The notes: generated by a model from the letters alone, not told the origin. Positions 17,010 through 51,444 are shown, numbered from the stretch's first letter. The stretch: DNA of 64,000 bases from a virus (IMGVR_UViG_2593339203_000002:32745-96744); one strand, 5' to 3'. Translations and numbers: made by a program.

Positions 17010-17026
17010 CCCGGCCCGCAACCAGC
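17010..17026 (-). promoter_or_regulatory. 17-nt leader element, minus-strand copy
   Basis: GCTGGTTGCGGGCCGGG on minus strand, 28 nt before ATG at 16981. Confidence 0.7.
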
Positions 17027-17451
17027 AGCGTAAGAGCCTGCCCGGCGTTCCAGCGCGGGCGGCAGAGCCACCGTAGCGCGTAACCGGCCGGGCGTGGGGG
17101 AGAACGGCCGCGGTCCCCGGACCGGGAGGGCACGGGGACCGCAGGGTGGAAGGGCGCCGCCCCCCTTGCGAGGACCAGGGCGGTGCCTTCCGGCGGGGCG
17201 GGCGGCGGCCAGTGGGGCGCGTACTCCCACGCCGTCCGGACACTGCATCGGCATAACCGCCGGGGCCCCGTGCCCGCACCCTACCGGAATTCCCGGAGCA
17301 TTCCGCCGCGGAATTGATCAGAATTACTACGCGCTAAACCCCCGAATTGATCGAAAGAGTGGCCGTGACCAGCGGATTTGCCTGCCCTGACGCTCTCCGC
17401 ATTGGCCTATGATGCGGCGCCGAACATCGGCGGATCATGCAAGGGGCGGAA

Positions 17452-17790
17452 ATGATCGGAATTCCGGAGATCGGCATCCTGGCACTCGCCGGATATCGGC
17501 TCACACAGCTCGGCGTTCATGACGCCATCCTGGACCCCGCACGAGACCGGGTATTCGACTGGCAGACACGCCGCCCGGAGTCCTCCGTGAGGGCCTTTCT
17601 CGTCACCCTCATCTCCTGCGTGTACTGCCTCGGCTGGTGGCTCTCCGGCGCCGTCCTGGCCGCCTACCTCCTCACCACCGACCAGTGGACCGGAACCCCC
17701 CTCCTCCTCCACGGCCTGGAATGGCTGGCCGTCGCCGGCGGCGCCGTCCTCCTCAACCGCTGGGACGACTCCCGCAAGGACGCATCGTGA
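17452..17790 (+). CDS. DUF1360-like membrane protein with CxxC
   Basis: YRLT.L...D.I..P.R...LISCVYCLGWW; TATGAT -10 upstream. Confidence 0.75.
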   Translation: MIGIPEIGILALAGYRLTQLGVHDAILDPARDRVFDWQTRRPESSVRAFLVTLISCVYCLGWWLSGAVLAAYLLTTDQWTGTPLLLHGLEWLAVAGGAVLLNRWDDSRKDAS

Positions 17791-19526
17791 CCGCCGCCGC
17801 GCCCCGCCGCGTCATCACGGCCGCCGCCTCCCGATACACCTCCCGCAAGCTCAAGGGCAACACGAAGAAACCGGACTCCGGCTGGCAGGAACGCGCCTGG
17901 ACGTTCTACGACACCACCCCCGAGGTCCGGTTCGCCGCACAGTGGGTGTCCGGCGCCATGAGCGCGGCCACCCTCTACGCCGGCCGCCTCGCCGACGACG
18001 GGAAGACGGTGGAGCCGGTCCCGGACACCCACCCGGCCGCGGAGATCGTCGCCCAGATCGCCGGAGGCCCCGAGGGACAGGCGCAGTTGCTCAGCGCGTT
18101 CGGCCCCCACCTGGTGGTCCCCGGGGAGGGCTGGATCGTCGTCCGGCCACGTGAGAAAGGCGGCCAGGACTGGCACGTCCTCTCCGTCCAGGAGATGCGC
18201 CAGCAGGGACAGAAACTCCTCGCGGAGATCGACGGGGAGGAGGTCGAGATCCCGCCGGCCGACCCGGACGGCACCGCCGACGACTCGGCCCCCGTGGGCA
18301 TCCGTGTGTGGCAGCCGCACCCCCGCCGCTTCCTGGAGGCCGACTCCCCGGTACGCGCCTCCCTCGGCCTCCTGGAAGAGCTCCAGCTCCTCAACGCCGC
18401 GGTGGCCGCCATCGCCCGCTCCCGCCTCACCGGCCGCGGCGTCCTCCTGGTCCCGCAGGGCACCCGCTTCCCCTCCACCCCCGTCCAGGGCAACGCCGAG
18501 GACGACCTGATCGAGGTGTTCATGGAGGTGGCGGAGACCGCCTACCGCGAGCCCGAGAGCGCGGCGGCCACGGTCCCGATCATCCTGGAGGTGCCGGCCG
18601 AGTCCATCGGCGCCATCAAGCGCCTCACGTTCGAAAGCGACTTTGACGAGCTCGCCCTGAAGCTGAGGGACGAGGCCATCCGCCGCTTCGCCACCGGCCT
18701 GGACACGCCCGCAGAGGTCGTGCTCGGCATGGGCGGCATCAACCACTGGGGCGCCTGGGCCTTGAAGGAGGAGGCGGTCACGCTCGGGGTGGAACCCCGC
18801 CTCAACACCGTTGCCCACGCCCTGACCACACAGTGGCTCCGTCCGCTCCTCCAGGACGTGGACGAGGAGGAGGCGGAGCGGTGCGTCGTCGTCGCCGACA
18901 CCTCCGGCCTCCGCGTCCGCGCCAACCGGTCCGCGACCGCGCTGGAGGTCTTCAAGGCCGGCGCGATCTCCGCCGCCGCGCTCCGCCGGGAGACCGGGTT
19001 CGACGAGAGCGACGCCCCCACCGCCGAGGAGGAGGCCGCCCGCCGCCGCGAGGAGGAGAACCAGGAGCAGCCCGGCCAGGAGGAGGGCGAGGAGGAGACG
19101 GACGTCCCCGTGGACGAGAGCGAGGAGGCCCCGGACACCCTCCCCGCCTCCGCCGCCGGACACCTCCCGTCCGCCGTCCTGGAGGCCGCGGACGGCCTGA
19201 TCTGGACCGCGCTCTCCGTCGCCGGGGAAAAGCTCCGCAAGACGCCGGCCTGCCCGCGCTCCGAGCGGTCGAAGGCCCGCGAGATCGAGCCCGCCCGCCT
19301 CCACACCGTCATCCGCGTGGAGCCCGGCCAGGTCGAACAGTGGCGGCTCCTGGAAGGCGCCTGGTCCCGCCTCCCGGAGGTCGCCACCCGCTACGGCCTG
19401 GACCCGGATTGCCTCTCCGCCTCCCTGGAGACGTACTGCCGGGAGCTCATCACCGCCGGGATCGGCCACGACTTCGACCTGACCCCGGGCGCGCTACGCA
19501 CCTCATGCCTGGCGGTGGCCGCATGA
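17787..19526 (+). CDS. Portal protein (actinophage type)
   Basis: WQERAW.FY...PEVRFAA, RVWQPHP...ADSP.R, NHWGAW; position; GTGA overlap. Confidence 0.8.
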   Translation: MTAAAPRRVITAAASRYTSRKLKGNTKKPDSGWQERAWTFYDTTPEVRFAAQWVSGAMSAATLYAGRLADDGKTVEPVPDTHPAAEIVAQIAGGPEGQAQLLSAFGPHLVVPGEGWIVVRPREKGGQDWHVLSVQEMRQQGQKLLAEIDGEEVEIPPADPDGTADDSAPVGIRVWQPHPRRFLEADSPVRASLGLLEELQLLNAAVAAIARSRLTGRGVLLVPQGTRFPSTPVQGNAEDDLIEVFMEVAETAYREPESAAATVPIILEVPAESIGAIKRLTFESDFDELALKLRDEAIRRFATGLDTPAEVVLGMGGINHWGAWALKEEAVTLGVEPRLNTVAHALTTQWLRPLLQDVDEEEAERCVVVADTSGLRVRANRSATALEVFKAGAISAAALRRETGFDESDAPTAEEEAARRREEENQEQPGQEEGEEETDVPVDESEEAPDTLPASAAGHLPSAVLEAADGLIWTALSVAGEKLRKTPACPRSERSKAREIEPARLHTVIRVEPGQVEQWRLLEGAWSRLPEVATRYGLDPDCLSASLETYCRELITAGIGHDFDLTPGALRTSCLAVAA

Positions 19527-19738
19527 CACCCCGCCCTCGGCCGTCGTCCCCGCGCCCGTTCCCGGTCCTCACCGTCTACGTGACGGCCGGCACCGCGCGC
19601 CCGGACTGGTGCCACGTCTGCAAGGCATACACCCGGTTCACCGGGGACGTCCTCCTCCTCACCCCGGAGGGCGTGTCCGTCGTCGGCTCCTACGCCGGGT
19701 GCGAGATCTGCGACGAGCCGGAGGAACACCGTGGATGA
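19523..19738 (+). CDS. Small zinc-binding protein
   Basis: CHVC...CEIC; ATGA overlap. Confidence 0.55.
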   Translation: MTPRPRPSSPRPFPVLTVYVTAGTARPDWCHVCKAYTRFTGDVLLLTPEGVSVVGSYAGCEICDEPEEHRG

Positions 19739-19991
19739 GCTGCCCTTCCTGATCAAAGAGGCGTCGGCCGAGCACGCTGCCAACCGCGTGAGCCTGATTG
19801 AGGAGGCCGGCACGGTGGCGATGGCCCACTTCGACACCCTCGCCCCGGGGTACGCGAGCGTGTACGTCACGCTGACGGCCCGCACGACGTACGGCACGGC
19901 GATGCTCGGCCAGTGGGGGTTCAGGCGCTCCGCTGACGGTGCGGTGACTCTCATCGGAGCGCTCCCGGATACGGAGGCCGCCCGTGTCTGA
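19731..19991 (+). CDS. Hypothetical protein
   Basis: GGAGG SD, overlapping coupling on both sides. Confidence 0.55.
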   Translation: MDELPFLIKEASAEHAANRVSLIEEAGTVAMAHFDTLAPGYASVYVTLTARTTYGTAMLGQWGFRRSADGAVTLIGALPDTEAARV

Positions 19992-24318: not shown

Positions 24319-24357
24319 TACTATTCAGCCCTAGCAGACCGCTGGTTTTGGGCCGGG
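24319..24357 (+). promoter_or_regulatory. -10-like hexamer plus 17-nt leader element before capsid gene
   Basis: TACTAT...GCTGGTTTTGGGCCGGG (24341-24357), 30 nt before ATG. Confidence 0.75.
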
Positions 24358-24387
24358 TCCCCAGCTTCAACACTGGAGACCCGACCC

Positions 24388-26088
24388 ATGGCCGACGAGT
24401 TCGAGCTCCCGCAGGACCTCAACCAGCTCTCCGACTCCGCGTTCCTCACGTCCCTCTCGGACGAGGAACTGGCGGACGCCCTCAGCGTCTCGTCCGTGAC
24501 CTTCGCCGCGCTCTCCGCGCAGGACGCCATCACGGACGATGCTCTCCAGCAGATGCGCGCCCTGGCCACCGGCTCCGAGGCGATCCGGCTGGAGCAGCGC
24601 TCCCGTACCGAGGCCGCGGAAGCCGCCGCCGCCGAGATCGAGGCCATGGCCGCCCGGGTCCGCGGAGACCAGGCCACCACCGAGGAGACGGCGGCAGCCG
24701 AGGGCGGGGAGGGCGGTGACGGCCAGGAGGCCACCGCCTCCACCGAGACCGCCCCGGCCGCTCCGGAGCAGCCCGCGGCACCCGCGGCCCCGGCCGCGCC
24801 GGCGGCGACGGCGTCCGCGGTCGTCGCCCGGCCGCCGCTCAACCTGAGCGCGGTCCGCCGCGTCCAGCCGCGCGTCCTCCCCGAGGCCCCGGCCCCCACG
24901 ACCCGCATCACCGCGGCCGTGGACGTCCCCGGCTACACCCCGGGCGCGCCCCTGGACTTCGACGACATCACCGCCGGCATCATCAGCCGCGCCAACGCGC
25001 TCAAGACGGCCGGCGGCGGGGTCGGGCAGGTGATCTCCTACCGGCACCCGTACGAGCAGGACCAGATCGTCACGGACTCCTCCTCCGCGCCGGAGGGGAC
25101 CACAGTCTCCCTGAGGGCGTCGGACCAGCGGCGCCTTCCGCAGAAGGAGCTCGTCGCCTCCGGTGGCTGGTGCGCGCCGTCGGAGACGATCTACGAACTG
25201 ACGGACACCGCGTGCCCTGACCTCCTCTGGGACGCACCGGAGATCCAGCTTGCGCGAGGTGGCCTGCGCTACTACAAGCCGCTCTCCCTGGACGTCGCCG
25301 CCATGACGTGGGTGCACACGGAGGCGGACGACATCTCCGGGGCCGAAAAGCCCTGCTACCGGGTGCCGTGCCCCGACCCGGTCGAGGTCCGGTGTGACGC
25401 GATCGGCGTCTGCCTGGAGGCTGGCATCCTCACGCAGCGCCACTTCCCGGAGCTCGTCTCCTGGTACCTCCGCAACGCCATGGTGGCGCACGAGATCCGC
25501 GTCAAGCAGTACCTCTTCCAGCAGGCCCTGAACACGGCCACGACGGTGGACATCCCGCAGTCCTTCGGCGCGCTCTCCTCCGTCTTCGCGGCGGTGGCGC
25601 TCCAGGCCGCCGACATGATCGAGCGTCACAGCCTCTGCGAGTCCACGGCCCTGGAGGTCGTGTTCCCGTACTGGTCCCGTCAGCTCTTCCTCGCGGACCT
25701 GGCGCGGCAGAACGGCAAGGACATCTGCGACCTCGACCCGGGGTGCATCCAGAACACGTTCGCCAAGCTCGGCGTACGCGTCCAGTTCGCCCGCGGCCTC
25801 AACCCGGCCGTGCCGGACGAGATCGGCGGGGAGACCCCGGCCACCGCGTTCCCGTCCACCGTGAAGTTCCTCATCTACCCGTCCGGCGGGCTGGTCATCG
25901 GACGCGGCGAAGAGGTCAATCTCGGGGTAATTCATGATTCAACTAAGTTCCGGTTCAACGACTACACGGCGCTTTTCGCGGAGGAATGCACGGCCCTCGT
26001 GGACAGGTCGGTGGACACCCGGCTGGTGACCGTCCCGGTCTGCCCGTCCGGTGAGACCGGCGCACAGACCCTCCTCGCCTGCGCCTGA
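24388..26088 (+). CDS. Major capsid protein with N-terminal scaffold-like extension
   Basis: Coiled/Ala-Pro N-terminus, LVASGGWCAPSE.IY, NDYTALF.EE; followed by a strong hairpin. Confidence 0.85.
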   Translation: MADEFELPQDLNQLSDSAFLTSLSDEELADALSVSSVTFAALSAQDAITDDALQQMRALATGSEAIRLEQRSRTEAAEAAAAEIEAMAARVRGDQATTEETAAAEGGEGGDGQEATASTETAPAAPEQPAAPAAPAAPAATASAVVARPPLNLSAVRRVQPRVLPEAPAPTTRITAAVDVPGYTPGAPLDFDDITAGIISRANALKTAGGGVGQVISYRHPYEQDQIVTDSSSAPEGTTVSLRASDQRRLPQKELVASGGWCAPSETIYELTDTACPDLLWDAPEIQLARGGLRYYKPLSLDVAAMTWVHTEADDISGAEKPCYRVPCPDPVEVRCDAIGVCLEAGILTQRHFPELVSWYLRNAMVAHEIRVKQYLFQQALNTATTVDIPQSFGALSSVFAAVALQAADMIERHSLCESTALEVVFPYWSRQLFLADLARQNGKDICDLDPGCIQNTFAKLGVRVQFARGLNPAVPDEIGGETPATAFPSTVKFLIYPSGGLVIGRGEEVNLGVIHDSTKFRFNDYTALFAEECTALVDRSVDTRLVTVPVCPSGETGAQTLLACA

Positions 26089-26174: not shown

Positions 26175-27014
26175 ATGCCGGGTATGCGCAAGCTCGTTCA
26201 GCCGATCCCGGGCGTGCCGCTACCGCACGGCATCCTCAACGCCTGCACCACCGTGGAGGACGTCACGGACGTCCATGAGCTCATGGGCGTGGAGTGGCGG
26301 GCCCTCGGCTGCTGCCCCGTCCACGAGTGGAAGGACCCGTGCCTGACGGACGACTCCCCCGGGGAGGAGTCCCCCGGCGAGCCGGTAGCCAAGCAGTTCT
26401 GCAGGCCGGAGTTCGAGCACGCCCAACCCATCACGCTCTACGCCGGCGCGGAGTGCTCCACGTTCGGCTGGTCCTACGAGGAGGCCGTGACCCACGCCCG
26501 GGCCACGATGGCCCTCGGGGAGCAGCACGGCCTGGAGGCCGCGTTCTGGTCCGGGAAGCTCACCGTGGACGCGGTGGACCTCACCCCCGCGGCCGGGCCG
26601 GTGTCCGTCGCGCAGGGCGTCGCGGCGCTGGAAGGCTGCTTGGCCGAGTCCTACGGCGGCGTGGGCGTCCTCCACGTTCCGGCCGGTGCCGCCGCGCTCC
26701 TCGGCTGCTGCAACGTCCTCACGAGGGACCCGGCCACCGGGAGCCTGGAGACCCTGGCGGGGAACTGCGCCGTGATCGGTGCCGGCTACTCCGCCGAGAA
26801 CACCGGGCCGGGCGGTATCCCGGCCGAGCCGGGGACGGCCTGGCTCTACATCACCGGGCCCGTCCACATCCGGCGCGGCCCCCTGGACGTCATCCCGGAC
26901 CGGTCCGCGTCCGTCAACCCCCGCACCAACGATCGCCGCGTGCTGGTGGAGCGGACGTACGTGGTCGGCACGACGTGCACCGTGTGCGCGGTGCTCGTGG
27001 AGGTCTGCGCGTGA
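26175..27014 (+). CDS. Putative minor capsid/decoration protein, Cys-rich
   Basis: GGAGG SD; directly follows capsid; 279 aa. Confidence 0.65.
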   Translation: MPGMRKLVQPIPGVPLPHGILNACTTVEDVTDVHELMGVEWRALGCCPVHEWKDPCLTDDSPGEESPGEPVAKQFCRPEFEHAQPITLYAGAECSTFGWSYEEAVTHARATMALGEQHGLEAAFWSGKLTVDAVDLTPAAGPVSVAQGVAALEGCLAESYGGVGVLHVPAGAAALLGCCNVLTRDPATGSLETLAGNCAVIGAGYSAENTGPGGIPAEPGTAWLYITGPVHIRRGPLDVIPDRSASVNPRTNDRRVLVERTYVVGTTCTVCAVLVEVCA

Positions 27015-27679
27015 ACGACTTCATCCGTATCCGCCCGGCCGCGCGCCGGCGTGTGCCGTTCGCCCGGTGGGCGGTGAGCCAGAACCCGAAGATCCGCACC
27101 GTCAGCCAGTCCGAGTTCGGCGTCCCGCCAGTCCTCTTCGTCGACATGCCGGAGGACCTACTCCGCGGCTCCCTGGTCGACGGCCGCCCGTACGTCTCCC
27201 CCCTCGACCAGGAGGAGGAGACAGAGGCGGCCGGACCGGGCGCGCCGGAGCTCCTGGGCGTCGCCACGCGCGGCCCGGACGGCTTCCTGGAGGCGGTCCC
27301 GGGCCAGCCGCTCCCGGAGGTCCCCGCCCACATCTACGGCCCGGACGCCGTCCCGCTCCCGGCCGACTTCGCGCCGCTGGAGGACGCCCCCGAGACGTAC
27401 GAGCTCTCCGGTGTCCTGGTGGGGGAGACCGGCCCGGAGACCTATGTCCCCCTCGGGGACACCAGCGGGGACACCCCCGGGGGCGCCCTCGCGCAAGGAG
27501 GGGACACGGCCGGAGAGACACCGGCCGTGACCAGCGAGGACACCCCGGGGGACACCGGAGACACGGCGGGGGACACCAGCGGGGGCACCGGCCGGTCGTT
27601 CCCGTGCGGGGCGTGCCCGCGCGCCTTCAAGAGCGAGCGCGGCCGGGACTCCCACCGCCGCCAGGTCCACGGGAGGTAG
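27011..27679 (+). CDS. Hypothetical protein with GDT repeats and C-terminal C2H2 zinc finger
   Basis: GTGA overlap; FPCGACPRAFKSERGRDSHRRQVH. Confidence 0.7.
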   Translation: MNDFIRIRPAARRRVPFARWAVSQNPKIRTVSQSEFGVPPVLFVDMPEDLLRGSLVDGRPYVSPLDQEEETEAAGPGAPELLGVATRGPDGFLEAVPGQPLPEVPAHIYGPDAVPLPADFAPLEDAPETYELSGVLVGETGPETYVPLGDTSGDTPGGALAQGGDTAGETPAVTSEDTPGDTGDTAGDTSGGTGRSFPCGACPRAFKSERGRDSHRRQVHGR

Positions 27680-27682: not shown

Positions 27683-28600
27683 GTGCCGGTCGAACCAATC
27701 CCCTGCGCCCCGGGCGGCGGTGGCGAGCCCCCCGGCCCGTCCTGCTGCGCCCCGTCCATCGCCTCCACGCCCCTGTGCCAGGAGGACGGGACCACCATCC
27801 TCCTGGTGCTCCGCTCCGCGTGCGCGTGTGACGGCGCGGAGCCCACACCGCCGGAAGTCGTCGGCTGGCTCGATCCGGTCACCGGCGACTTCACGGAGGG
27901 CCCGGCACCGGCCGGCGCCGGGCCGTGCGGCGCGGACGACTGCGCGTCCGTCTCCCTCCTCCGCCTGTGCGACCTGACGGAGGAGGAGTGCGTCCCGTTC
28001 CTCCGCCACCTGGTCCACGACTGCACGGGCGCCGTCACCTCGAGCACGGACACCGCCCTGGACGGCGTCACCCCCTACACGCCGACCGGAACGGTAGGGG
28101 ACTGCGAGGACTGCCCGTGCCCGCCGAAGACGCGCGTACTCCCGCTCTGTGACTACCTCGGCCCGGGCCCCACGCCCGTCGTCCAGTTCCTCCGCCACGT
28201 CACCTACGACTGCACCACCGGCGAGGTCCTGGAGCAGACGGACACCCTCCCGGACGCGGTGACGCCGTACACGCCCGTGGGGGAGGTCGGGGAGTGCGGC
28301 CAGTGCCGGCCCACCCCGATGTGCCCCACCCTCCTCGGCCTCTCCGGCCCGGAGACCTGGTCCATGCCGGAGGGCACGGAGTCGCTGGCCATCACCGTGG
28401 CGTGCGGCCCCGTCACCGTCACTGACTGCTCCGGGAACGCGACCACGATCAACGAGTGCGGCGCCTCCTTCACCTGGGCTGCCCCGCCTGGCGACTGCAC
28501 CCCCGGACGCCTCTGCACTCCCGTCACGGTCGACGTCCCCGAGGGCGCGGCCGTCTACCTCAACCTGCTCATCCCGTGCGGCATGGGAGACGTCTCGTGA
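27683..28600 (+). CDS. Cys-rich virion protein with two LCD..FLRH..DC..DT.LDG.TPYTP modules
   Basis: 305 aa, 25 Cys by hand count; module shared with 30083 and 35674 proteins. Confidence 0.75.
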   Translation: MPVEPIPCAPGGGGEPPGPSCCAPSIASTPLCQEDGTTILLVLRSACACDGAEPTPPEVVGWLDPVTGDFTEGPAPAGAGPCGADDCASVSLLRLCDLTEEECVPFLRHLVHDCTGAVTSSTDTALDGVTPYTPTGTVGDCEDCPCPPKTRVLPLCDYLGPGPTPVVQFLRHVTYDCTTGEVLEQTDTLPDAVTPYTPVGEVGECGQCRPTPMCPTLLGLSGPETWSMPEGTESLAITVACGPVTVTDCSGNATTINECGASFTWAAPPGDCTPGRLCTPVTVDVPEGAAVYLNLLIPCGMGDVS

Positions 28601-36514: not shown

Positions 36515-36587
36515 TAGACTCCTGGTAGCTGCTGGTTCTGGGCCGGGCTGACACCACGTTTGTTACGCCTGCTGGTTTAGGGCCGAG
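36515..36587 (+). promoter_or_regulatory. -10 TAGACT plus two tandem 17-nt leader elements
   Basis: GCTGGTTCTGGGCCGGG 36531-36547; GCTGGTTTAGGGCCGAG 36571-36587, 31 nt before GTG. Confidence 0.75.
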
Positions 36588-36618
36588 CCGTCCAACTTCC
36601 TTTGTTGGAGGCTCCACC

Positions 36619-39831: not shown

Positions 39832-39985
39832 TTGACCCCCGCCCGGGCCTCGTGCCAGCCTGCCGGGAGCTGATCAGTGCAGCGGCGGAGGCCGCTCCCC
39901 TTTACCCCGGCCTGGCCGGGGGCCCCTCATGCCGGGAGGGCGGGGAGCGGCCTCCGTGTCGTCTCACGCCCCGCCCGGGCCCGGC

Positions 39986-40029
39986 TACCCTCTGCCCCTG
40001 GACGCGTTCACTGCTGGTTGTGGGCCGGG
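39986..40029 (+). promoter_or_regulatory. -10-like TACCCT plus 17-nt leader element
   Basis: GCTGGTTGTGGGCCGGG 40013-40029, 33 nt before GTG 40063. Confidence 0.7.
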
Positions 40030-40062
40030 TGACGGCGCGTCGGAGGCATGAGGGGCGAGCCC

Positions 40063-40943: not shown

Positions 40944-41000
40944 CGTGACCAGCGGCTAACCTGGGGACGTCCGGCCCCCCTTGTGCGCGGCCGGCGCGCC

Positions 41001-41017
41001 GCTGGTTTTGGGCCGGG
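41001..41017 (+). promoter_or_regulatory. 17-nt leader element before tape measure gene
   Basis: GCTGGTTTTGGGCCGGG, 29 nt before GTG 41047; TAACCT 38 nt upstream. Confidence 0.75.
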
Positions 41018-41046
41018 CAACCACACACGACACGTGAGGTTGCCCG

Positions 41047-44000
41047 GTGGCCGGCGATGAGATCGACTACGGCAGCGCCCGCATCACGATCGACCTGGAC
41101 GACACGGACGCGGAGCGTCAGGCGTCCAGCATCGGCGCCGACATCGAACGGGCGTTGACCAGGGCCACCCGGAACATCGGCCGGACCGTCTCCCGCAACC
41201 TCCAGCGGAGCCTTCGCCGTCTCTCCATCGGCGCGCGCGTGGAGCCGGACCTCAGCCGGTTCGAGCGGACTCTACGCCGCAGCATCCGCGGGATGGCGCC
41301 CGTGGCCGTCCCGGTCACCGCGGACCTCCGGCAGTTCCAGCGCGGCATCCGACGGGGCGGCGGTGACGCCGTCTCCGTCCCCGTCTCCCCGGACCTACGC
41401 CGCTTCGCCCGGGACCTCCGCCGAGGCCTGCGCGGCATTCAGGCGGAGGTCCAGGTCCGGGCCGACGCACGGGCCCTGATCCGGGATATCGAGCGGGAGC
41501 TGCGCCGGGTCTCCCCGCCGGCCATCAGGATCCCGGCGGAGGTGGACCTCTCCCGACTCCGGTCCGAGCTCGCCAGCCTGGACGTCCCCCGGATTCACGT
41601 ACAGGTGTCCCTGGACGTCGCGCGGGTGGAGGCGGAGCTCCGGGATCTGGCCTCCCGCACGATCACCATTCCCGTCACGCTCGGGGAGCCCGGCGGCGGT
41701 GATCCCGGGGGCGGGCTCCTGGACGCTCTGCGCGGCTCGTTGAGCGGGGCCGGGGGGATCGGTCTCGGCGCGGGCGCCGCCGCGTTGGGCGGTATCCGTG
41801 CCGGGCTCCTGGCCGCCGGGCCGTGGGGCGCGATCGCTGCCGGCGTCGCCGCGTACGCCGCGGCGATCGGCAAGGTGCTCATGACCGGCATTGAGGGGGT
41901 CATCGAGCACCAGCAGATCGCCGGGGCCCTCCGCGCCGCGCTCGGCCTCGGCGAGGCCGCCGCGAACCAGGTCGGCCGGGTCGTCGGGCAGCTCTACGCC
42001 CGCGGCGTGGTGGAGTCCGTGGAGGAGGGCACCGCCGCGGTGCAGGCGGCCCTCCGTAACGGCCTGGCCGCCCCGGACGACCTCCCGGGGCTGGAGTCGA
42101 TCTCCACGAAGGTGTCCGACCTCGGGCGCCTCATGGAGGAGGACATCGGCAAGGTGGCCCGCGCCATCGGGACGATGGTGAAGACGGGCCTGGTCGACAA
42201 CGCCACGGAGGGCCTGGACCTCCTGACGCGGTCCGTCCAGCAGGGCGGGAACGTCGCGGAGGACCTGCTCGACACCTTCACGGAGTACCCCACTCAGTTC
42301 CGGCAGTTGGGGCTTTCCGCGGAGGAGGCGTTCGGCCTCATCCAGCAGGGCCTACGCGGTGGCGCCCGGGACTCGGACGTGATCGCGGACGCGCTCAAAG
42401 AGTTCTCGATCGAGGCCGCGCAGGGCGGTAAGCGGGTGGTCGACGCCTTCAAGGCGATGCACCTGGACGCCGAGCGGCTGACGGACCAGTTCGCGAAGGG
42501 CGGCCCGGAGGCCCGGTCCGCGCTGGCCGAGATCTTCGACGAGCTCCAGAAGATCGAGGACCCGCTAGAGCGGAACCAGGCCGCCGTCGGGTTGTTCGGT
42601 ACCAAAGCGGAGGACCTGGCGGGGGCCCTCGCCAGCCTGGACCTGACGAACGCGGCGAAGGAGCTGGACGGCTTCGGCGGCGCCGCCGGCCGGGCTGGTG
42701 ACGCCCTCCGGGACGACCTGGGGACGAAGCTCCAGACGATCGGCCGGGAGATCAAACAGGCCTTTCAGGGCCTCTTTACCGGGGACTTTTCCCAGTTCGC
42801 GGACGTCGGCCGGGCTATCGAGGACGCCCTACCGGACCTCAAGGCCACCGGCGCGCACATCGCCGAGTCCATCCAGCAGGGCATTACGGAGTACGGCCCG
42901 AAGGTGTTCGCGGCCCTCTTCGATCTCGCCTTCGAGATCGGGGAGCGGGTGGACATCTGGGGCCCGCTCCTCCTCAAGATCATCGCTGGTGCGTCGGCGC
43001 TCCCGGCCGTCATCGGATCCCTGATCCTCACCGCTATCGCCGGCGGGCTCGCCGGGATCGGCTCCAAGCTCCTCCCGTACCTGGAGACGGCTTGGGACGC
43101 CGTGGCCTCGTTCATCACGGAGACCGTCCCCCAGGTTGGCGCGGACCTGGCGTCCGGCCTGGCCGACGTCTTCACCGGCGCGTTTGCCTCCGCGCGGGAC
43201 GCCGTCTCCTCCGGGATCGACACCGTGGTCGGGTTCTTCACCGGCCTGCCCGGCCGGATCGCGTCCGCCGCCTCCTCCCTGGGCGGACAGATCGGCGGAT
43301 TCTTCACGAGCGCTTTCGAGACCGGGAAGCAGGCGGTGAGCGACGGGACCACCGCGGTGGTCGACTTCTTCGTCCAGCTCCCCGGCCGCATCCTCGCGGG
43401 CCTGGCCGCGCTCCCCGGGCTCCTCCTGGACGCCTTCACCTCCGCCGTGGCGTACGTGGCCATCGGGCTCCTCACCGCGGTCGCAGGGATCGTCTTCGTC
43501 TTTACCGAGCTGCCAGGCCGGATCTGGAACGCCCTACTGGGTTTGGGAGCGCTGCTCCTGGCGGCCTTCCAGGCCGGTTGGTCGGCGGTGACGGCGTGGC
43601 TCGGCCAGGCGCTCACCTCCACCATCGCGTTCTTCGCCGCGCTCCCCGGGCGGGTGGGTGGCGCCCTGGCGTCCTTCGGCTCGTTCCTCCTCGGCGCCCT
43701 GGTGTCCGGGTTCAACTCCGCCCGGTCCCGGATCTCCGGGTGGATCTCGGAGGCCGTCGGGTTCTTCGCCGCGCTCCCCGGCCGGGTGGGTGGCGCCCTG
43801 TCGTCCTTCGGCTCGTTCCTGCTGCGGAACATCGTTGCCGGGTTCAACTCCGCCCGGTCCCGGATCTCCGGGTGGATCTCGGAGGCGGTCGGGTTCTTCC
43901 GGGCCCTCCCCGGCAAGATCGGCTCCGCACTCTCCGCGCTCCCCGGCCGTCTGGCGTCGGCGTTCTCCAGTGCGGCCAGCCGCGCCCGGTCCGCCGTCTC

Positions 44001-44418
44001 CAGCCTGATCAGCGGCATCGTGGGCCTCTTCCGCGGCCTACCCGGCAAGATCGTCTCGGCCGTCGGCAACATCGGCGGCCAGATCATGAGCAAGATCAAA
44101 TCCGGGCTCCCGTCCGCCGTGAAGAAATACCTCCCCTTCGCCAACGGCGGCGTGGTCCTCGGCCCGACCCACGCCCTGATCGGCGAGGCCGGCCCGGAGG
44201 TCGTCATTCCCCTGACACGGCCGAAGCGGGCGCGGCAGCTCGCGCAGGAGTCCGGGCTCCTGGACATCCTCGGCGGAGCCCGGCCACCGCGGCCCGGAGG
44301 CGGGGAGACGGCGGGCCGGACCGTGAACCAGTACGTGACCATCAACGAGGTTGGGGACGCGCGCACGACCGCGCACCGCGTCACGTCCCGCCTCGCCGTG
44401 GCGGGAGGCCTGCTCTAG
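41047..44418 (+). CDS. Tail tape measure protein
   Basis: 1123 aa, DLLDTF.EY..QF..LG, LFGTKAEDL, FF..LPGR repeats, FANGG..IGEAGPEVVIPL. Confidence 0.93.
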   Translation: MAGDEIDYGSARITIDLDDTDAERQASSIGADIERALTRATRNIGRTVSRNLQRSLRRLSIGARVEPDLSRFERTLRRSIRGMAPVAVPVTADLRQFQRGIRRGGGDAVSVPVSPDLRRFARDLRRGLRGIQAEVQVRADARALIRDIERELRRVSPPAIRIPAEVDLSRLRSELASLDVPRIHVQVSLDVARVEAELRDLASRTITIPVTLGEPGGGDPGGGLLDALRGSLSGAGGIGLGAGAAALGGIRAGLLAAGPWGAIAAGVAAYAAAIGKVLMTGIEGVIEHQQIAGALRAALGLGEAAANQVGRVVGQLYARGVVESVEEGTAAVQAALRNGLAAPDDLPGLESISTKVSDLGRLMEEDIGKVARAIGTMVKTGLVDNATEGLDLLTRSVQQGGNVAEDLLDTFTEYPTQFRQLGLSAEEAFGLIQQGLRGGARDSDVIADALKEFSIEAAQGGKRVVDAFKAMHLDAERLTDQFAKGGPEARSALAEIFDELQKIEDPLERNQAAVGLFGTKAEDLAGALASLDLTNAAKELDGFGGAAGRAGDALRDDLGTKLQTIGREIKQAFQGLFTGDFSQFADVGRAIEDALPDLKATGAHIAESIQQGITEYGPKVFAALFDLAFEIGERVDIWGPLLLKIIAGASALPAVIGSLILTAIAGGLAGIGSKLLPYLETAWDAVASFITETVPQVGADLASGLADVFTGAFASARDAVSSGIDTVVGFFTGLPGRIASAASSLGGQIGGFFTSAFETGKQAVSDGTTAVVDFFVQLPGRILAGLAALPGLLLDAFTSAVAYVAIGLLTAVAGIVFVFTELPGRIWNALLGLGALLLAAFQAGWSAVTAWLGQALTSTIAFFAALPGRVGGALASFGSFLLGALVSGFNSARSRISGWISEAVGFFAALPGRVGGALSSFGSFLLRNIVAGFNSARSRISGWISEAVGFFRALPGKIGSALSALPGRLASAFSSAASRARSAVSSLISGIVGLFRGLPGKIVSAVGNIGGQIMSKIKSGLPSAVKKYLPFANGGVVLGPTHALIGEAGPEVVIPLTRPKRARQLAQESGLLDILGGARPPRPGGGETAGRTVNQYVTINEVGDARTTAHRVTSRLAVAGGLL

Positions 44419-45734: not shown

Positions 45735-45736
45735 CG

Positions 45737-47254: not shown

Positions 47255-47288
47255 TACCCTCTGGTCACGCCGCTGGTTGTGGGCCGGG
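47255..47288 (+). promoter_or_regulatory. -10-like TACCCT plus 17-nt leader element
   Basis: GCTGGTTGTGGGCCGGG 47272-47288, 31 nt before GTG. Confidence 0.75.
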
Positions 47289-47319
47289 CGCCCGTCCTCT
47301 CCCTTGAAGGGGCCAGACC

Positions 47320-48039
47320 GTGGCGTCCGTATGCGTGTGTGACGACTACTTCACCGTGACCGACACCGGGGAGCTCTGCCTCATCCCCGGCCGCCAGGGC
47401 CTCCGCCAGGTCCTGAAGTTCAGCGAGCCCGGCACCTTCCAGTTCCGGAAGGCTGACTATCCCTGGCTCGCGCGGGTGCTGGTCCGCGTCCAGGCGGCGG
47501 GCGGTGGCGCGGCGGGAGCGTCGGCGGGGAATGACCTCCTGGCGTGCCAGCCCGGAGGGGCGGGCGGCGGCTACTCGGAATCCCTCCTCGCCGTGTCCGC
47601 GCTCGGCCCTGTGGAGACCGTGATCGTGGGCGAGGGCGGAGAAGCCGGCGGCTCCACCACGGACGGCGGCAACGGCGGAGGCTCTAGCTTCGGGGGCCTG
47701 GTGACCGCGAACGGCGGCGGAGGAGGCTCGGCCGTCATGACGGCCGGGAGCACACCGATCTGCTACTCCGGCACGGCCGGCCCGCTCGCTGGATCGGGAC
47801 AGACGGCCATGGGCGGTGGAGCGGGCGGCGGCGCAATCCGGATCAGCGGCACTCAAGGCCTGGCCGGTTCCGGCGGCGAGTCGCACATGGGACACGGCGG
47901 GTTCCAGCGGGCCTCCACCGGCGGTGGTGGCGCTCCCCGTGGGTACGGCGGCGGCGCGGCCGGCGGCATGGCGCGCGGCGGAACCGTGGACGGCACGAAG
48001 GGCCAGGACGGAGCCGTGTGGGTGGAGCTCTACGGCTGA
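47320..48039 (+). CDS. Glycine-rich tail protein (paralogous to C-terminus of 28597 protein)
   Basis: VRVQAAGGG..GGAGGGYSES..GGGSSFG.LVTANGG. Confidence 0.75.
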   Translation: MASVCVCDDYFTVTDTGELCLIPGRQGLRQVLKFSEPGTFQFRKADYPWLARVLVRVQAAGGGAAGASAGNDLLACQPGGAGGGYSESLLAVSALGPVETVIVGEGGEAGGSTTDGGNGGGSSFGGLVTANGGGGGSAVMTAGSTPICYSGTAGPLAGSGQTAMGGGAGGGAIRISGTQGLAGSGGESHMGHGGFQRASTGGGGAPRGYGGGAAGGMARGGTVDGTKGQDGAVWVELYG

Positions 48040-48072: not shown

Positions 48073-48107
48073 TAGACTCGACGGGACGCCGCTGGTTGTG
48101 GGCCGGG
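48073..48107 (+). promoter_or_regulatory. -10 TAGACT plus 17-nt leader element
   Basis: GCTGGTTGTGGGCCGGG 48091-48107, 31 nt before TTG. Confidence 0.75.
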
Positions 48108-48138
48108 CCGAGGACTTACCCCGTGAGGACGGTGTCCC

Positions 48139-48972
48139 TTGGCTCGTTGCGGATGCGGCGGTGGCGTGTGCAACTGCTCGCTGATCGCAGGTGAGAACGT
48201 CACGATCAGCGGCACGGGATCAGTGGCGAACCCCTTCAAGGTCTCCGCGGAGGTTCCGTGCGAGACGGTCCGGACGTGCTTTAGCGCCGGCCCCGGGATC
48301 GACCTGGACCAGACGTCCGGGATCATCGCCGCGGACCTCTCCGGGGAGGCCGGGAACAATCTGGTGATCGGGCCGGACGGCGGGCTCCTGGTGCCCACGG
48401 CGGCCGGGCAGATCCTCACCGGGTGCGGCCTGACCGGTGACGGATCGGGGAGCTCTCCGGTTGAGGCGGCCACCGGGACGTGGCCGTACGAGTGCCCGGT
48501 GGACGAGGCCGGCACGGTAATCGCGTGCGATTCGGCCGGCGTCCTGCGCGGGGAGCCGCGCGCGGTGGCTACGTTCACCACGTACTCCGAGGAGCGGACG
48601 TTCCCGGACATTGAGATCCCGCCGGGCTCCGTCCAGACGGTGGACAACTACGCTGTAACCGCCACGAACCCCTCCTCCTGCCGCCCGGCGATGATCCTGG
48701 CGGAGCAGGAGGTGGACGTGTGGATGGTCCTCCCGGCCGGCGCTGGCGGGGCGACTGGCTTCGACGGTGACGAGTGCTTCTACATGCGGAACACCGGCAC
48801 CAGCACCCTGACGAGCGTGCACGCGCAGGCAACGAAGTTCCTCTCCCGCGGCATGCTCGCGCCCGGGGCGTCCACGTCCGTCGGGTTCGGGGCGTCGGTC
48901 GGCAAGGGCTCCGGTGGCGCCTACTACTGGCGCATCAACTACATCCTCCGCGTGTTCCTCCTGGCTCTGTGA
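48139..48972 (+). CDS. Tail fibre/receptor-binding-like protein
   Basis: MARCGCGGGVCNC N-terminus; G.GS...PF and GN.L..G.DGGL motifs shared with 49435 protein. Confidence 0.7.
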   Translation: MARCGCGGGVCNCSLIAGENVTISGTGSVANPFKVSAEVPCETVRTCFSAGPGIDLDQTSGIIAADLSGEAGNNLVIGPDGGLLVPTAAGQILTGCGLTGDGSGSSPVEAATGTWPYECPVDEAGTVIACDSAGVLRGEPRAVATFTTYSEERTFPDIEIPPGSVQTVDNYAVTATNPSSCRPAMILAEQEVDVWMVLPAGAGGATGFDGDECFYMRNTGTSTLTSVHAQATKFLSRGMLAPGASTSVGFGASVGKGSGGAYYWRINYILRVFLLAL

Positions 48973-49341: not shown

Positions 49342-49342
49342 C

Positions 49343-49405
49343 TAGACTCCTGGTAGCCGACTGGTTATGGGCCGGGCGCAGCGCTGCTGCTGGTTGTGGG
49401 CCGGG
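49343..49405 (+). promoter_or_regulatory. -10 TAGACT plus two tandem 17-nt leader elements
   Basis: ACTGGTTATGGGCCGGG 49360-49376; GCTGGTTGTGGGCCGGG 49389-49405, 29 nt before ATG. Confidence 0.75.
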
Positions 49406-49434
49406 CGTCCCTCCGAAGTCTCCGGAGTACACCC

Positions 49435-51183
49435 ATGGCTCAGTTCGGCTGCGGCGGCTCCCGCTGCACCTGCCAGGTCACCGCCGGCCCGGGCGTCACC
49501 GTCACCGGCAACGGTTCCGCCGGCGCCCCCTACGTCATCGAATCCGAAGCGGGCACGGTCACGTGTGACCAGGTCCGCCCCTGCATCTCCGCCGGAGACG
49601 GCGCCTCCTACGACCCGGCCACGGGGGTGGTCGCCGCACGACCGTCGACCGACGCCGGGAACAGCCTCGGCTTCGGGACGGACGGCGGCCTCCTGGTCCC
49701 GCCCGCCGGCGCGCCCGCCCTGGAGGCCGGGGACACGGACACCGTGGACACCACGGTCACGGGCGCCGGGGTGCCCGGGGACCCGTTCGTGGTCTCGGCG
49801 GACGTGAAGCTGGACCCGACGCCGCCGCAGGGCGGTACCAACCTGATCGGCTCCGGGGCGGAAGGCCTCTTCCTGGAGTGCGCCGACGTCCGCGGTTGCT
49901 TCACCGCCGGGGACGGCATCGCCTACGACCCGGACACGGGCGAGATCGCCGCCCGGGTCTCCGAGGACGCCGGGAACCAAACGGTGATCGGAACGGACGG
50001 CGGGATCTACACCCCGGCCTCCGGCGGCTCCTCCACGTCCCTGGCCGCCGGGGACTCGGACACGGTGGACACCACCGTGGCAGGGAGCGGCACGGAGGCG
50101 GACCCCTTCGTGGTCTCCTCCACGGTCATCCTGGACCCCACCCCGCCGCAGGGCGGTACCAACCTGATCGGCTCCGGGACGGAAGGCCTCTTCCTGGAGT
50201 GCGCCGACGTCCGGGGATGCTTCACCGCCGGGGACGGCATCGCCTACGACGAGACCACGGGCGAGATCGCCGCGCGGCCGTCGACCGACGCCGGGAACGG
50301 CGTCTCCTTCGGCACGGACGGCGGCCTCTACGCGCCTGCCGCCTCCACGGCTCTGCAGGCCGGGGACACGAACACCGTGGACACCACGATCACGGGCACG
50401 GGGGAGGCCGGGGACCCGTACGTGGTGGCGGCGGACGTCATCGTGGCGCCGGAGCCGAACGGCCTGGAGGCCACGGATGACGGGCTCCTGGTGGCGCCCT
50501 CGGCCGACGCCGGGAACCAGCTCACCATGGGCACGGACGGCCGGCTCTTCGTCCCGCCGGACGAGCCGCTGGAGATCGGGTGCGGTCTCCAGGGCGACGG
50601 CACCGCGGCTGCGCCCCTGGCCGCCTTCCCCATCGCCGGGGAGCAGCCCTGGACGGATGACTGGGACTGCGACGCGGCGGCGAACAGCACGCTGAAGTGT
50701 GACCCGGGCACGGGAGCCCTGTGGACCCCGCCGGAGCACACCAGCGCGGCCGTCACCCTCCAGCAGAACCACCCGGTGACCGGGCTCGCCTTCACGGACA
50801 CCGGCGGCGCCGTCGTCGTCTCCGAGGACGCCTGGTCCGCTGGCCAGTACACCGCGGACACCCTCACGACCTGCCGCGGCGTCTCCTACTCGGTCCGGTT
50901 CACCGGCCACCTCGAGGTGTCATGGACGGCCAACGCCCGGTTCGACGTCGGATACGCAATCCAGATCGACGGCGGCGGCCTGGCCGTGCGGCTCATGCAC
51001 AGCATCCTCGCGGACGGGCCCGCCGGCCGGGAGCGCTGGACGTTCAACCTCTCGGAGGCCGCCGTCCTGCCCCCGCACACCGGCAAGAACGTGCGGGTAT
51101 ACCCGGCCATCCGCGTGACCGCGGGCACCGCCACGATCCAACAGTGGATCACCGACACCGACCTCATCGTGATCACCCGGTAA
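49435..51183 (+). CDS. Long tail fibre-like protein with about 107-aa tandem repeats
   Basis: GGAG SD before ATG 49435; 321-bp DNA repeat period (LDPTPPQGGTNLIGSG.EGLFLECADVRGCF). Confidence 0.75.
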   Translation: MAQFGCGGSRCTCQVTAGPGVTVTGNGSAGAPYVIESEAGTVTCDQVRPCISAGDGASYDPATGVVAARPSTDAGNSLGFGTDGGLLVPPAGAPALEAGDTDTVDTTVTGAGVPGDPFVVSADVKLDPTPPQGGTNLIGSGAEGLFLECADVRGCFTAGDGIAYDPDTGEIAARVSEDAGNQTVIGTDGGIYTPASGGSSTSLAAGDSDTVDTTVAGSGTEADPFVVSSTVILDPTPPQGGTNLIGSGTEGLFLECADVRGCFTAGDGIAYDETTGEIAARPSTDAGNGVSFGTDGGLYAPAASTALQAGDTNTVDTTITGTGEAGDPYVVAADVIVAPEPNGLEATDDGLLVAPSADAGNQLTMGTDGRLFVPPDEPLEIGCGLQGDGTAAAPLAAFPIAGEQPWTDDWDCDAAANSTLKCDPGTGALWTPPEHTSAAVTLQQNHPVTGLAFTDTGGAVVVSEDAWSAGQYTADTLTTCRGVSYSVRFTGHLEVSWTANARFDVGYAIQIDGGGLAVRLMHSILADGPAGRERWTFNLSEAAVLPPHTGKNVRVYPAIRVTAGTATIQQWITDTDLIVITR

Positions 51184-51195
51184 GGAGCCCTACCC

Positions 51196-51369
51196 GTGCG
51201 CTACTTCCTCAACGACGCCGGCGGATGGATGTCCGTGAGCGGTGACGCCGACCTCTTCAACGTCGTGCCGGACGGGTACCGGGAGGTGACGGAAGCCGAG
51301 TTCAACGAGGCGGCCGGCGTCATCACCCTGGAGCCGCCGCAGCCGAAGGACCCCGAGCCGGCCGAGTAA
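51196..51369 (+). CDS. 57-aa acidic protein, possible fibre chaperone (absent from supplied ORF track)
   Basis: TAAGGAG SD; MRYFLNDAGGWMSVSG...YREVTEAEFNE. Confidence 0.7.
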   Translation: MRYFLNDAGGWMSVSGDADLFNVVPDGYREVTEAEFNEAAGVITLEPPQPKDPEPAE

Positions 51370-51378
51370 CGGCCCGCT

Positions 51379-51411
51379 GCTGTGGGCCGGGGAGCACCCC
51401 CGGCCCACAGC
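51379..51411 (+). terminator. Hairpin ending the tail module
   Basis: GCTGTGGGCCGGGG-N5-CCCCGGCCCACAGC. Confidence 0.65.
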
Positions 51412-51444
51412 TACACTCCCCGTAGCCGCTGGTTCTGGGCCGGG
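51412..51444 (+). promoter_or_regulatory. -10-like TACACT plus 17-nt leader element before lysis cassette
   Basis: GCTGGTTCTGGGCCGGG 51428-51444. Confidence 0.75.

Follow-up and report, generated by a model that had tools for sequence, protein, structure and literature searches.

Eleven copies of a short asymmetric sequence, here called the box, are spread over nine loci of the window, that is, of the whole 64,000-nucleotide stretch of provirus DNA that was analysed. All of them are intergenic, belong to the virion module and have the same orientation as transcription, and at all nine loci, including the one on the minus strand, the box is in the sense orientation of the next gene, as the earlier note had claimed for its 17-nt element. 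The box-preceded genes encode capsid, tail tube, chaperone, tape-measure, minor tail and fibre-type proteins, which confirms the virion-gene targets proposed in that note (capsid, tail tube, chaperone, tape measure and fibres). The loci comprise the following features:

16517-16981, minus strand: DUF6292 gene (PF19809, E 1.7e-9), ATG 28 nt after the box
17007-17029, minus strand: leader box of the minus-strand locus, before the DUF6292 gene (core 17010-17026, GC at positions 8-9)
24319-24324, plus strand: -10-like hexamer TACTAT of the capsid locus, 16 nt before the box
24338-24358, plus strand: leader box of the major capsid locus (core 24341-24357; pair -3:+1 is A-U)
24388-26088, plus strand: major capsid gene, ATG 30 nt after the box, 84% identity to TurkishDelight gp17
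36515-36520, plus strand: hexamer TAGACT of the major tail locus, gap of 10 nt to the first tandem box
36528-36548, plus strand: leader box, tandem copy 1 of the major tail locus (core 36531-36547)
36568-36588, plus strand: leader box, tandem copy 2 of the major tail locus (core 36571-36587, GCTGGTTTAGGGCCGAG; pair -1:16 is U-A)
36619-37320, plus strand: major tail protein gene, GTG 31 nt after the second box
39986-39991, plus strand: hexamer TACCCT of the chaperone locus, gap of 21 nt to the box
40010-40030, plus strand: leader box of the tail assembly chaperone locus (core 40013-40029; pair -3:+1 is A-U)
40063-40605, plus strand: tail assembly chaperone gene, GTG 33 nt after the box
40957-40962, plus strand: hexamer TAACCT of the tape-measure locus, gap of 38 nt to the box
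40998-41018, plus strand: leader box of the tape-measure locus (core 41001-41017)
41047-44418, plus strand: tape-measure gene, GTG 29 nt after the box
47255-47260, plus strand: hexamer TACCCT of the glycine-rich protein locus, gap of 11 nt to the box
47269-47289, plus strand: leader box of the glycine-rich protein locus (core 47272-47288)
47320-48039, plus strand: gene for a glycine-rich domain protein (PF21722), GTG 31 nt after the box
48073-48078, plus strand: hexamer TAGACT of the MARCGCGG locus, gap of 12 nt to the box
48088-48108, plus strand: leader box of the MARCGCGG locus (core 48091-48107)
48139-48972, plus strand: gene for a protein with a Cys-rich N-terminus (MARCGCGG...), TTG 31 nt after the box
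49343-49348, plus strand: hexamer TAGACT of the MAQFGCGG locus, gap of 11 nt to the first tandem box
49357-49377, plus strand: leader box, tandem copy 1 of the MAQFGCGG locus (core 49360-49376, ACTGG...)
49386-49406, plus strand: leader box, tandem copy 2 of the MAQFGCGG locus (core 49389-49405)
49435-51183, plus strand: 582-aa gene (MAQFGCGG...), ATG 29 nt after the second box
51412-51417, plus strand: hexamer TACACT of the lysis-region locus, gap of 10 nt to the box
51425-51445, plus strand: leader box of the lysis-region locus (core 51428-51444)

The distances to the start codon given earlier (28, 30, 31, 33, 29, 31, 31, 29 and 29 nt) were reproduced. So were the TANNNT hexamers: each of the eight plus-strand loci has one, separated from the box by 16, 10, 21, 38, 11, 12, 11 and 10 nt, respectively. 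The choice of 40063 as the chaperone start is backed by the family N-terminus MRKSFALNTEPHVAEIG, and that of 51474 in the lysis region is doubtful, as this TTG opens just a 46-codon Arg-rich ORF and the endolysin runs from about 51611. The product of the gene at 48139-48972, for which no Pfam family was matched, is probably a tail fibre-type protein. The same DUF6292 gene with the same box variant as at the minus-strand locus was found at one further locus (L101).

A pattern search of the window with up to two mismatches yielded 13 matches against 0.52 expected (standard deviation 0.76, shuffle maximum 3), a number reached in none of the 100 shuffled windows, so that the 11 copies at nine loci reported before can be regarded as real. 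The two remaining matches, at 4507 (minus) and 46342 (plus), have two mismatches each, are located inside ORFs and were missed by a covariance model of the box, which recovered the same 11 copies and no others; they were treated as chance. In the full 96.7-kb provirus record all 10 matches with at most one mismatch, nine forward and one reverse, fall in the part covered by the window, the reversed-pattern control gives no match, and the immunity/early region contains no box copy. Results of our analysis indicate that the box is wider than the 17-nt core and comprises 21 nt, 5'-GCY-GCTGGTTNTGGGCCGGG-C, or, when spaced by structural element, 5'-GCY G C U GGUU NUG GGCC G GG C.

Phage TurkishDelight carries the same box, as do more than 119 viral contigs, and 13 of the 201 Streptomycetaceae genomes searched have it in clusters within prophages. 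The possibility of a common, randomly oriented host motif, raised earlier as a check, finds no support, since 188 of these genomes have no exact copy and the copies in the remaining 13 lie mostly in same-strand clusters (three matches in total for the reversed control). Apart from the prophage, a 7.2-Mb host genome contains no repeated copies of the 13-nt core in rRNA operons or elsewhere, and the idea of a mimic of a host RNA site was rejected. TurkishDelight has no box with up to two mismatches outside the 12.9-30.6 kb region, and the complete proviruses G009 and G010, as well as G006, have only the portal-to-lysis module in common with the phage studied here. The box thus travels with the virion module and not with early genes. 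Outside that module only a DUF6884 domain is shared, which gives no hint of regulation, and among the box-bearing phages and proviruses compared there is no shared early regulator. A variant of the box precedes the capsid and tail genes of three Woodruffvirus phages. The presence of both variants in tandem in one contig argues against strict lineage-specific recognition. None of the Rfam 15 covariance models, run over the whole window, matched at any box (E up to 1).

The box can be folded into a bulged hairpin with the proposed pairs -3:+1, -2:17, -1:16, 2:15, 4:14, 5:13, 6.12 and 7.11, in which G1 and U3 are bulges. Among 192 unique sites, pair -1:16 is C-G in 139, U.G in 40, U-A in nine and another combination in four, pair -2:17 is C-G in 185, U.G in five and U-A in two, and pair -3:+1, which is unbiased because it lies outside the search pattern, is G-C in 169, A-U in 15, G.U in two and another combination in six; an A at position 16 always meets a U at -1 (9/9). 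In 150 sequences 98.3% of cells are paired, and changes on both sides of a pair occur in 19 cells against 2.6 +/- 1.5 in shuffles, none of 500 shuffles being as high; these covariation counts come from related sequences and are uncorrected for phylogeny. Sliding the partner by -1 or +1 lowers the pairing to 62% and 55%, respectively. The four outer pairs covary, and the four inner ones are invariant and hence give no covariation signal. Two further replacements were seen: C2-G15 is replaced by A2-U15 in a diverged prophage (G209), and U6.G12 by C6-G12 in the Woodruffvirus variant. Since the cells of the outer pairs include 47 U.G or G.U and a single A/C combination, that is, U.G is tolerated and A/C is not, the structure forms on the sense strand. 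Together with the complementarity found in capsid and tape-measure leaders (see below), the covariation of the flanks lends support, at the level of sequence comparison, to the RNA-level element of the earlier note: the box would act, or at least fold, as RNA on that strand. Taken alone, the box hairpin, with about -6 to -8 kcal/mol, does not exceed its shuffles in stability (z +0.5 and +1.1).

The position of the box is restricted on both sides. Of 188 unique contexts, 139 have a -10-like hexamer, TAnnCT, that ends 9-17 nt 5' of the box, distances of 9-13 nt being the commonest. The start codon follows 22-35 nt 3' of the box in 143 of the 178 contexts compared, most often at 28-29 nt, and a Shine-Dalgarno sequence (SD) lies about 16-20 nt after the box. 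The claim of a variable distance to the -10 hexamer combined with a fixed distance to the start therefore does not hold family-wide, where both are constrained. The logo of 157 hexamer sites has C at position 5 in 87% of them and no -35 element. Given these two constrained distances, short leaders are expected to begin with the hairpin, which would lie about 0-5 nt from the predicted 5' terminus if transcription begins where the hexamer suggests. It is not always 5'-terminal, because the hexamer is 20-54 nt away or absent in about one-fifth of the classified sites; in many tape-measure, tail and capsid leaders the gap between hexamer and box extends to 30-54 nt and the distance from box to start is kept.

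In the leaders of the capsid and tape-measure genes, the SD, the spacer and the start codon are complementary to the box (z about -4). The capsid leader (24335-24396) folds with -31.2 kcal/mol (z -3.99) and the tape-measure leader (41001-41055) with -34.3 kcal/mol (z -4.30), none of 200 shuffles being as stable in either case, and the family alignment of tape-measure leaders contains three pairs with compensatory changes. RNAalifold was uninformative on capsid leaders, whose variable hairpins were misaligned by MAFFT. Over 143 leaders the mean energy is -21.3 kcal/mol vs. -18.3 kcal/mol in shuffled leaders (mean z -1.2, 31% below -2), and pairing of the box at positions 1-9 is lower than expected from shuffles (0.42 vs. 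0.58). Pairing of GGGCCGGG with positions -14 to +6 amounts to -9.5 kcal/mol in box genes vs. -8.0 kcal/mol in 101 TurkishDelight control genes, with p 2e-5 uncorrected for relatedness. Sequestration of the SD as a universal feature was rejected: leaders of the chaperone, fibre and gp32 types do not differ from controls in their pairing with the initiation region, and the purine-rich leader of the chaperone gene at 40063 has a fold that is not significant (z +0.38). An enhancer that pairs with 16S rRNA was rejected as well, as the best duplex with host 16S rRNA falls inside the spread of 300 shuffled motifs; one of four motif variants reaches the 3% tail, with large internal loops.

On balance, we lean towards the box being a cis-acting RNA leader operator near the 5' end of virion mRNAs that is bound by a putative factor, and the hairpin probably controls the expression strength of the major virion genes. 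In such a unit a -10-only promoter (GC-TAnnCT, no -35), often preceded by a terminator-like hairpin, would be followed after about 10-13 nt by the box, and then by a 22-35 nt leader with the SD and by the start codon. Transcription would start about 7 nt after the hexamer and place the hairpin base 0-5 nt from the 5' end, where the invariant bulges and loop may be read by a sequence-specific factor, most likely a protein. Because the early regions of box-bearing phages are unrelated, this factor should be host-encoded or lie inside the virion module. Its binding may raise the output of the most abundant virion proteins by 5'-end protection and, in capsid, major tail and tape-measure leaders, may also hold the box in its own hairpin, whose 3' half would then be unable to pair with the SD, spacer and start codon. 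Such an anti-sequestering switch cannot be the general mechanism, because sequestration of the SD and start is specific to gene families.

Two genes of the virion module encode proteins that may be considered in this respect:

19523-19738, plus strand: candidate partner A, 71 aa, zinc-ribbon-like (WCxxC...CxxC), just after the portal gene
27011-27679, plus strand: candidate partner B, 222 aa, in the capsid unit, after the capsid gene

Candidate A was found in 6 of 201 genomes by profile search and in one of four prophage regions by tblastn; small CxxC-bearing ORFs of uncertain reading frame occupy its place in two other prophage regions, and it was not found in two box-rich prophages. Candidate B has a conserved N-terminal domain, which all the modules examined contain, followed by a disordered acidic linker and, at the C-terminus, a classical C2H2 zinc finger. 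It has no significant overall fold match in the PDB; its C-terminal 28-30 residues match classical C2H2 fingers locally, and the ferredoxin-like matches of the N-terminal domain are insignificant. The idea that its C-terminal module tracks the box variant was rejected, since one genome (G140) combines canonical boxes with a basic tail. Both proteins are weak candidates for box-binding partners. A bolder extension of the favoured reading, which we regard as doubtful, makes the box the sensor in a portable cassette for late expression, in which a single factor, derived from the virion module (the zinc-ribbon protein A or the C2H2/basic-tail protein B) or from the host, would lock the 5' hairpin on every virion mRNA and release hidden ribosome-binding sites. 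The structural module would then regulate itself as a whole and could be exchanged freely among phages whose early regions are unrelated, and the box would define a natural phage regulon of many genes governed by a conformational RNA switch.

It is also conceivable, though rather unlikely, that the box needs no specific factor and is purely a cis-acting 5'-terminal stabiliser against 5'-end-dependent decay of late mRNAs, for which RNase E and RNase J are the relevant actinobacterial enzymes, its near-invariance being due to repeated recombination or gene conversion among copies and between phages. The stem base of known 5' stabilisers lies within about 4 nt of the 5' end, a geometry consistent with the 9-13 nt spacing of hexamer and box, by which the predicted start and the stem base would be about 0-4 nt apart; besides, tandem and hybrid boxes resemble recombination scars, and no consistent partner gene was found among the genomes and modules compared. 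However, the 5'-terminal stabiliser hairpins of ompA, ermC and SP82 are not known to require a conserved sequence, whereas loop, bulges and stem of the box are almost invariant, the loop and bulge bases even across modules with capsids 45-70% identical, in which the adjacent leader drifts freely. The weakness of the hairpin (z > 0) and the constrained distance to the start codon also speak against mere stabilisation.

The DNA-level alternatives offered by the earlier note, a late-activator site or a stoperator, lose ground. The stoperators of mycobacteriophage L5 are asymmetric, oriented with transcription and located in short intergenic regions in many copies per genome; they correspond to the operator bound by the immunity repressor and are found in both arms of the genome. 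The box resembles them in its asymmetry, transcription-oriented intergenic location and copy number, and its place just 3' of a -10-only promoter, in tandem at some loci, is typical of operators, so that a repressor bound to the duplex at about +3 to +25 might block RNA polymerase. This is improbable in view of the lack of copies in the immunity/early region of the provirus or TurkishDelight, the immunity genes not common to box-bearing phages, and the occurrence of the variant in Woodruffvirus phages, in none of whose three records a tyrosine or serine integrase domain (PF00589, PF00239) was matched. Moreover, the flanks covary as base pairs within one genome, in the RNA manner, and G.U pairs take part in the complementarity of the box with spacer and start. 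Very improbable in our opinion is a promoter-proximal DNA element, be it an initially transcribed sequence or a downstream site for a late activator or alternative sigma factor. The unusual C at hexamer position 5, the missing -35 and the preferred distance of the box would suit it, but the gap stretches to 30-54 nt with the start distance kept, no early regulator is shared, and the covariation is of RNA type.

Several known systems may be compared with the leader operator favoured here. In phage Mu, Com, a small zinc-finger protein, activates mom from a site immediately 5' of a helix in which the ribosome-binding site of this late gene is hidden. A predicted helix that may hide the SD and start is strong in capsid and tape-measure leaders and absent from chaperone and fibre leaders, and a 71-aa CxxC...CxxC protein (candidate A) is encoded in many, though not all, of these virion modules; in contrast to the single target of Com, there are 7-11 box targets per genome. 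The lambda boxB/nut and RAT antiterminator RNAs are small, conserved, promoter-near hairpins read through loop and bulges that act on termination at few sites, and in RAT systems the bound hairpin competes with an alternative helix. The box would be a hairpin of the same kind, but its leader is not followed by a U-tract terminator, the alternative helix involves the initiation region, and each unit is served by a promoter of its own.

A further actinophage parallel concerns the Cluster K mycobacteriophages, whose Start-Associated Sequences (SAS/ESAS) are described as a 13-bp sequence that includes the SD, lies 3-7 bp from the start and precedes non-structural genes only, with a host- or phage-encoded RNA or protein as the proposed partner (Pope et al. 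2011, PMC3203893). The same paper mentions the stoperators of mycobacteriophage L5 and Cluster A, and states that no base-pairing support was found for the ESAS repeats. SAS and the box are both short asymmetric repeats that keep a single orientation and accompany gene starts; both are missing from the host genome and conserved across gene families. They differ in that the box has 21 nt, lies 22-35 nt from the start separately from the SD, belongs to virion genes only and, unlike ESAS, has flanks that covary as pairs.

Late gene control in actinophages is largely unknown, and the box is a widespread, easily recognised candidate RNA signal. In Streptomyces phages and prophages it would mark the promoters of virion genes along with their true start codons; it may offer a compact promoter-leader part for expression work in Streptomyces, and constitutes a testable case of a structural module that carries its own expression logic while being shuffled among phages. 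The literature searched on TurkishDelight, cluster BD and late promoters or conserved sequences of Streptomyces phages contains nothing on the box, and the paper on the Samy prophage makes no mention of it. In TurkishDelight, the annotated start of gp33 falls inside a box, so that the box already corrects at least one deposited start.

A search of the window with the 17-nt core GCTGGTTNYGGGCCGGG, at up to two mismatches, gave 13 matches against 0.52 expected, a number reached in 0 of 100 shuffles. Eleven of these are the copies at nine loci listed in the earlier note, and a covariance model built later finds exactly these 11; the remaining two lie inside ORFs, are missed by the model, and were treated as chance matches. 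Every window copy is oriented in the sense of the next gene, and this, like the box-to-start spacers, is as the earlier note had described. In the whole 96.7-kb IMG/VR provirus record (G+C 71-76%; the window covers 32745-96744), all copies of this element (the box) are confined to the virion part. The box is real and widespread, and apparently undescribed so far; the pattern of its sequence variation argues that it is a structured RNA leader element marking virion genes, where it may act on stability, translation, or both.

The window is colinear with the genome of Streptomyces phage TurkishDelight (NC_073473.1; 40-89% protein identity) through the immunity region, early genes, terminase, and virion genes to the integrase. 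TurkishDelight carries nine box copies, distributed over seven loci (capsid, major tail, chaperone, tape measure, gp30, gp32, and gp33), where the flanks have diverged and the box is intact. The deposited start of its tailspike gene gp33 (30557) falls within the box (region 30550-30598), and an ATG 23 nt past the box fits the family pattern. Its gp20, annotated as a glycosyltransferase, is encoded among the virion genes, with the capsid unit on one side and the major tail gene on the other; in the window, a tail-module gene at 37323-38030 has a weak match to Stealth CR2, of sugar-phosphate transferase type.

The core of the box stands as reported, but its width does not, as the conserved element extends to positions -3 to -1 and +1: among 192 sites, -3 is G in 90%, -2 is C in 96%, -1 is C in 72% or T in 26%, and +1 is C in 91%. 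A -10-like TANNNT hexamer ends 9-17 nt upstream of the box in 139 of 188 unique contexts (peak 9-13), and none is present within 60 nt in 21 of them. The hexamer-aligned logo of 157 sites reads G-C-T-A-n-n-C-T, with C at position 5 in 87%, and contains no -35 element. Downstream, the start codon of a high-GC3 ORF lies 22-35 nt from the box in 143 of the 178 contexts with enough downstream sequence (mode 28-29). For 27 contexts no such ORF was found: most of them are evidently chance matches, having C at position 9, and a handful are genuine sites preceding short ORFs. The 143 genes start with ATG (63), GTG (53), or TTG (27), in a context tending towards CCC-NUG-GCC. The genes served encode capsid, major tail, chaperone, tape-measure, and distal and minor tail proteins, as well as several proteins with Cys-rich N-termini; a minus-strand DUF6292 gene is also preceded by the box in the window phage and one other. 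At the tail, chaperone, and lysis loci of the window, the hexamer is closely preceded by a stable hairpin, which fits separate transcription units.

Strong G+C-rich hairpins without a U-tract directly upstream of the -10-like hexamer (window coordinates)
36465-36500, hairpin
39938-39975, hairpin
51380-51415, hairpin containing TGTGGGCCGGGG, a sequence similar to the box's 3' half

Downstream of the lysis-region box (51474-51620) lie a Shine-Dalgarno sequence (SD) and a TTG whose Arg-rich ORF spans just 46 codons. Other phages have a gene starting MATDAHLHTSGVLVCSLK at the position of this TTG; the gene may have decayed in the window phage, leaving a leader of ~165 nt before the endolysin gene.

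The conserved flanks pair with each other and with the end of the core, and in all nine sites with A at position 16, position -1 is U.

Base pairs formed by the flanks of the box (192 sites)
Pair -1:16, C-G 139, U.G 40, U-A 9, other 4
Pair -2:17, C-G 185, U.G 5, U-A 2
Pair -3:+1, G-C 169, A-U 15, G.U 2, other 6

Covariation was scored on the structure ...(((.(.((((...))))))))... in 150 sequences, namely the first 144 of 174 unique family windows (30 left out) and six from a diverged prophage. In this set, 98.3% of cells pair, and shifting the partners by one column in either direction lowers this value to 62% and 55%; 19 cells are changed on both sides, compared to 2.6 +/- 1.5 in shuffles (0 of 500 reach 19). 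The inner four pairs are invariant within the main family and give no covariation signal. The diverged prophage, of genome G209 (capsid 46% identical), has the box in the form (A)CTGGTTSAGGGCCGG(G/A) or (G/C)ATGGTTGAGGGCCTG(G/A), with C2-G15 replaced by A2-U15 and U-A at -2:17. Before the capsid and tail genes of the Woodruffvirus phages Xkcd426, YDN12, and phiSAJS1, the box takes the form GCTGGCGKTAGGCCGGG, with C6-G12 in place of U6.G12 and a different loop.

The window phage itself has both states of the -3:+1 pair, A-U at the capsid and chaperone boxes and G-C at the others, so the paired changes do not reflect a shifted half-site preference of a dimeric DNA-binding protein. The 47 wobble cells (U.G and G.U) against a single A/C cell are expected only if the sense strand, and not its complement, folds. 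The isolated box hairpin is not unusually stable relative to shuffles (z +0.5 and +1.1). The stoperator alternative of the earlier note, as in L5, fails, since the immunity region has no box copies and the box occurs in phages without detectable integrase. Pairing of the box with 16S rRNA was likewise rejected, its complementarity being unremarkable.

A second pairing, in competition with the box hairpin, is possible in the leaders of capsid, tail, and tape-measure genes: the SD, the spacer, and in many cases the start codon are complementary to the box's 3' half plus the bases that follow it. It includes several G.U pairs, a further sign of RNA. The window tape-measure leader (-34.3 kcal/mol, z -4.30) and capsid leader (-31.2 kcal/mol, z -3.99) each exceed all of 200 shuffles in stability, the tail leader reaches z -1.8, and no significant fold relative to shuffles is seen for the chaperone, fibre, and lysis leaders. 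The tape-measure family alignment contains 13 pairs, three with compensatory changes. Over 143 leaders, the mean fold z is -1.2, and shuffles show more pairing in the 5' half of the box. GGGCCGGG pairs better around starts of box genes than around 101 control genes of TurkishDelight, an excess stemming from the capsid, tail, and tape-measure families. This pairing is not universal among leaders.

The IMG/VR scan revealed at least 119 stretches with the box, many of them multi-copy. An exact copy is present in 13 of 201 Streptomycetaceae genomes (49 copies, mostly in same-strand clusters) and absent from 188, and the reversed pattern gives three matches in the same genomes; therefore, the box is phage-specific and not a host repeat. 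In five host genomes, the exact copies are grouped on one strand in clusters of 15-25 kb; beyond these, only one-mismatch matches occur, scattered over the two strands about as often as in the reversed control. The Woodruffvirus-type variant occurs in 64 IMG/VR stretches; 29 of its 50 unique contexts have the hexamer-box-leader layout of the main type, 26 of these 29 with a standard -3:+1 pair. One contig, L333 (IMGVR_UViG_2862281513_000001), has a Woodruffvirus-type and then a main-type box in tandem in one leader (~2340-2410) and uses the main type elsewhere; the tandem possibly records recombination at the box.

The box matches no Rfam 15 family, and no description of it was found in the literature searched. 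Mechanistically, it would stand closest to Com-mom, boxB/RAT-type leader hairpins, and 5'-terminal stabilizers. The nearest described case, the SAS/ESAS repeats of Cluster K mycobacteriophages (PMC3203893), differs in size, position, gene class, and the lack of pairing support.

The box-bearing proviruses G009 and G010 (both complete) and G006 have only the portal-to-lysis module in common with the window phage, except for one DUF6884 domain; a specific partner of the box would therefore have to be host-encoded or encoded within the module. The products of two genes in the module show nucleic-acid-binding features, and neither is a convincing candidate. The 71-aa WCxxC...CxxC protein encoded after the portal gene was detected in six of 201 genomes and missed in two box-rich prophages, which have small CxxC-bearing ORFs of uncertain reading frame at its place. 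The 222-aa protein encoded after the capsid unit is present in all modules examined. Its N-domain and C2H2 finger are confidently folded in the prediction, the finger superposing on classical ones at 1-1.5 A; its tail differs among phages, being either a zinc finger or a basic stretch, irrespective of box variant.

The DUF6884 domain, the only one outside the virion module that the window phage shares with both G009 and G010, is C-terminal in a 483-aa protein with an internal duplication (3369-4820); for ORF 1620-2123, one match was seen, in G010. A weak 6C RNA match (RF01066; 41 bits against a gathering score of 47) lies at 61202-61290 on the minus strand, near the excisionase/integrase end of the prophage. 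The 1836-aa ORF between the capsid unit and the tail gene (30083-35593) has no Pfam match, and its relatives in other box-bearing phages cover only the first ~210 residues; two neighbouring ORFs, 27683-28600 and 35674-36144, correspond to opposite ends of a single PHROG profile (phrog_18824).
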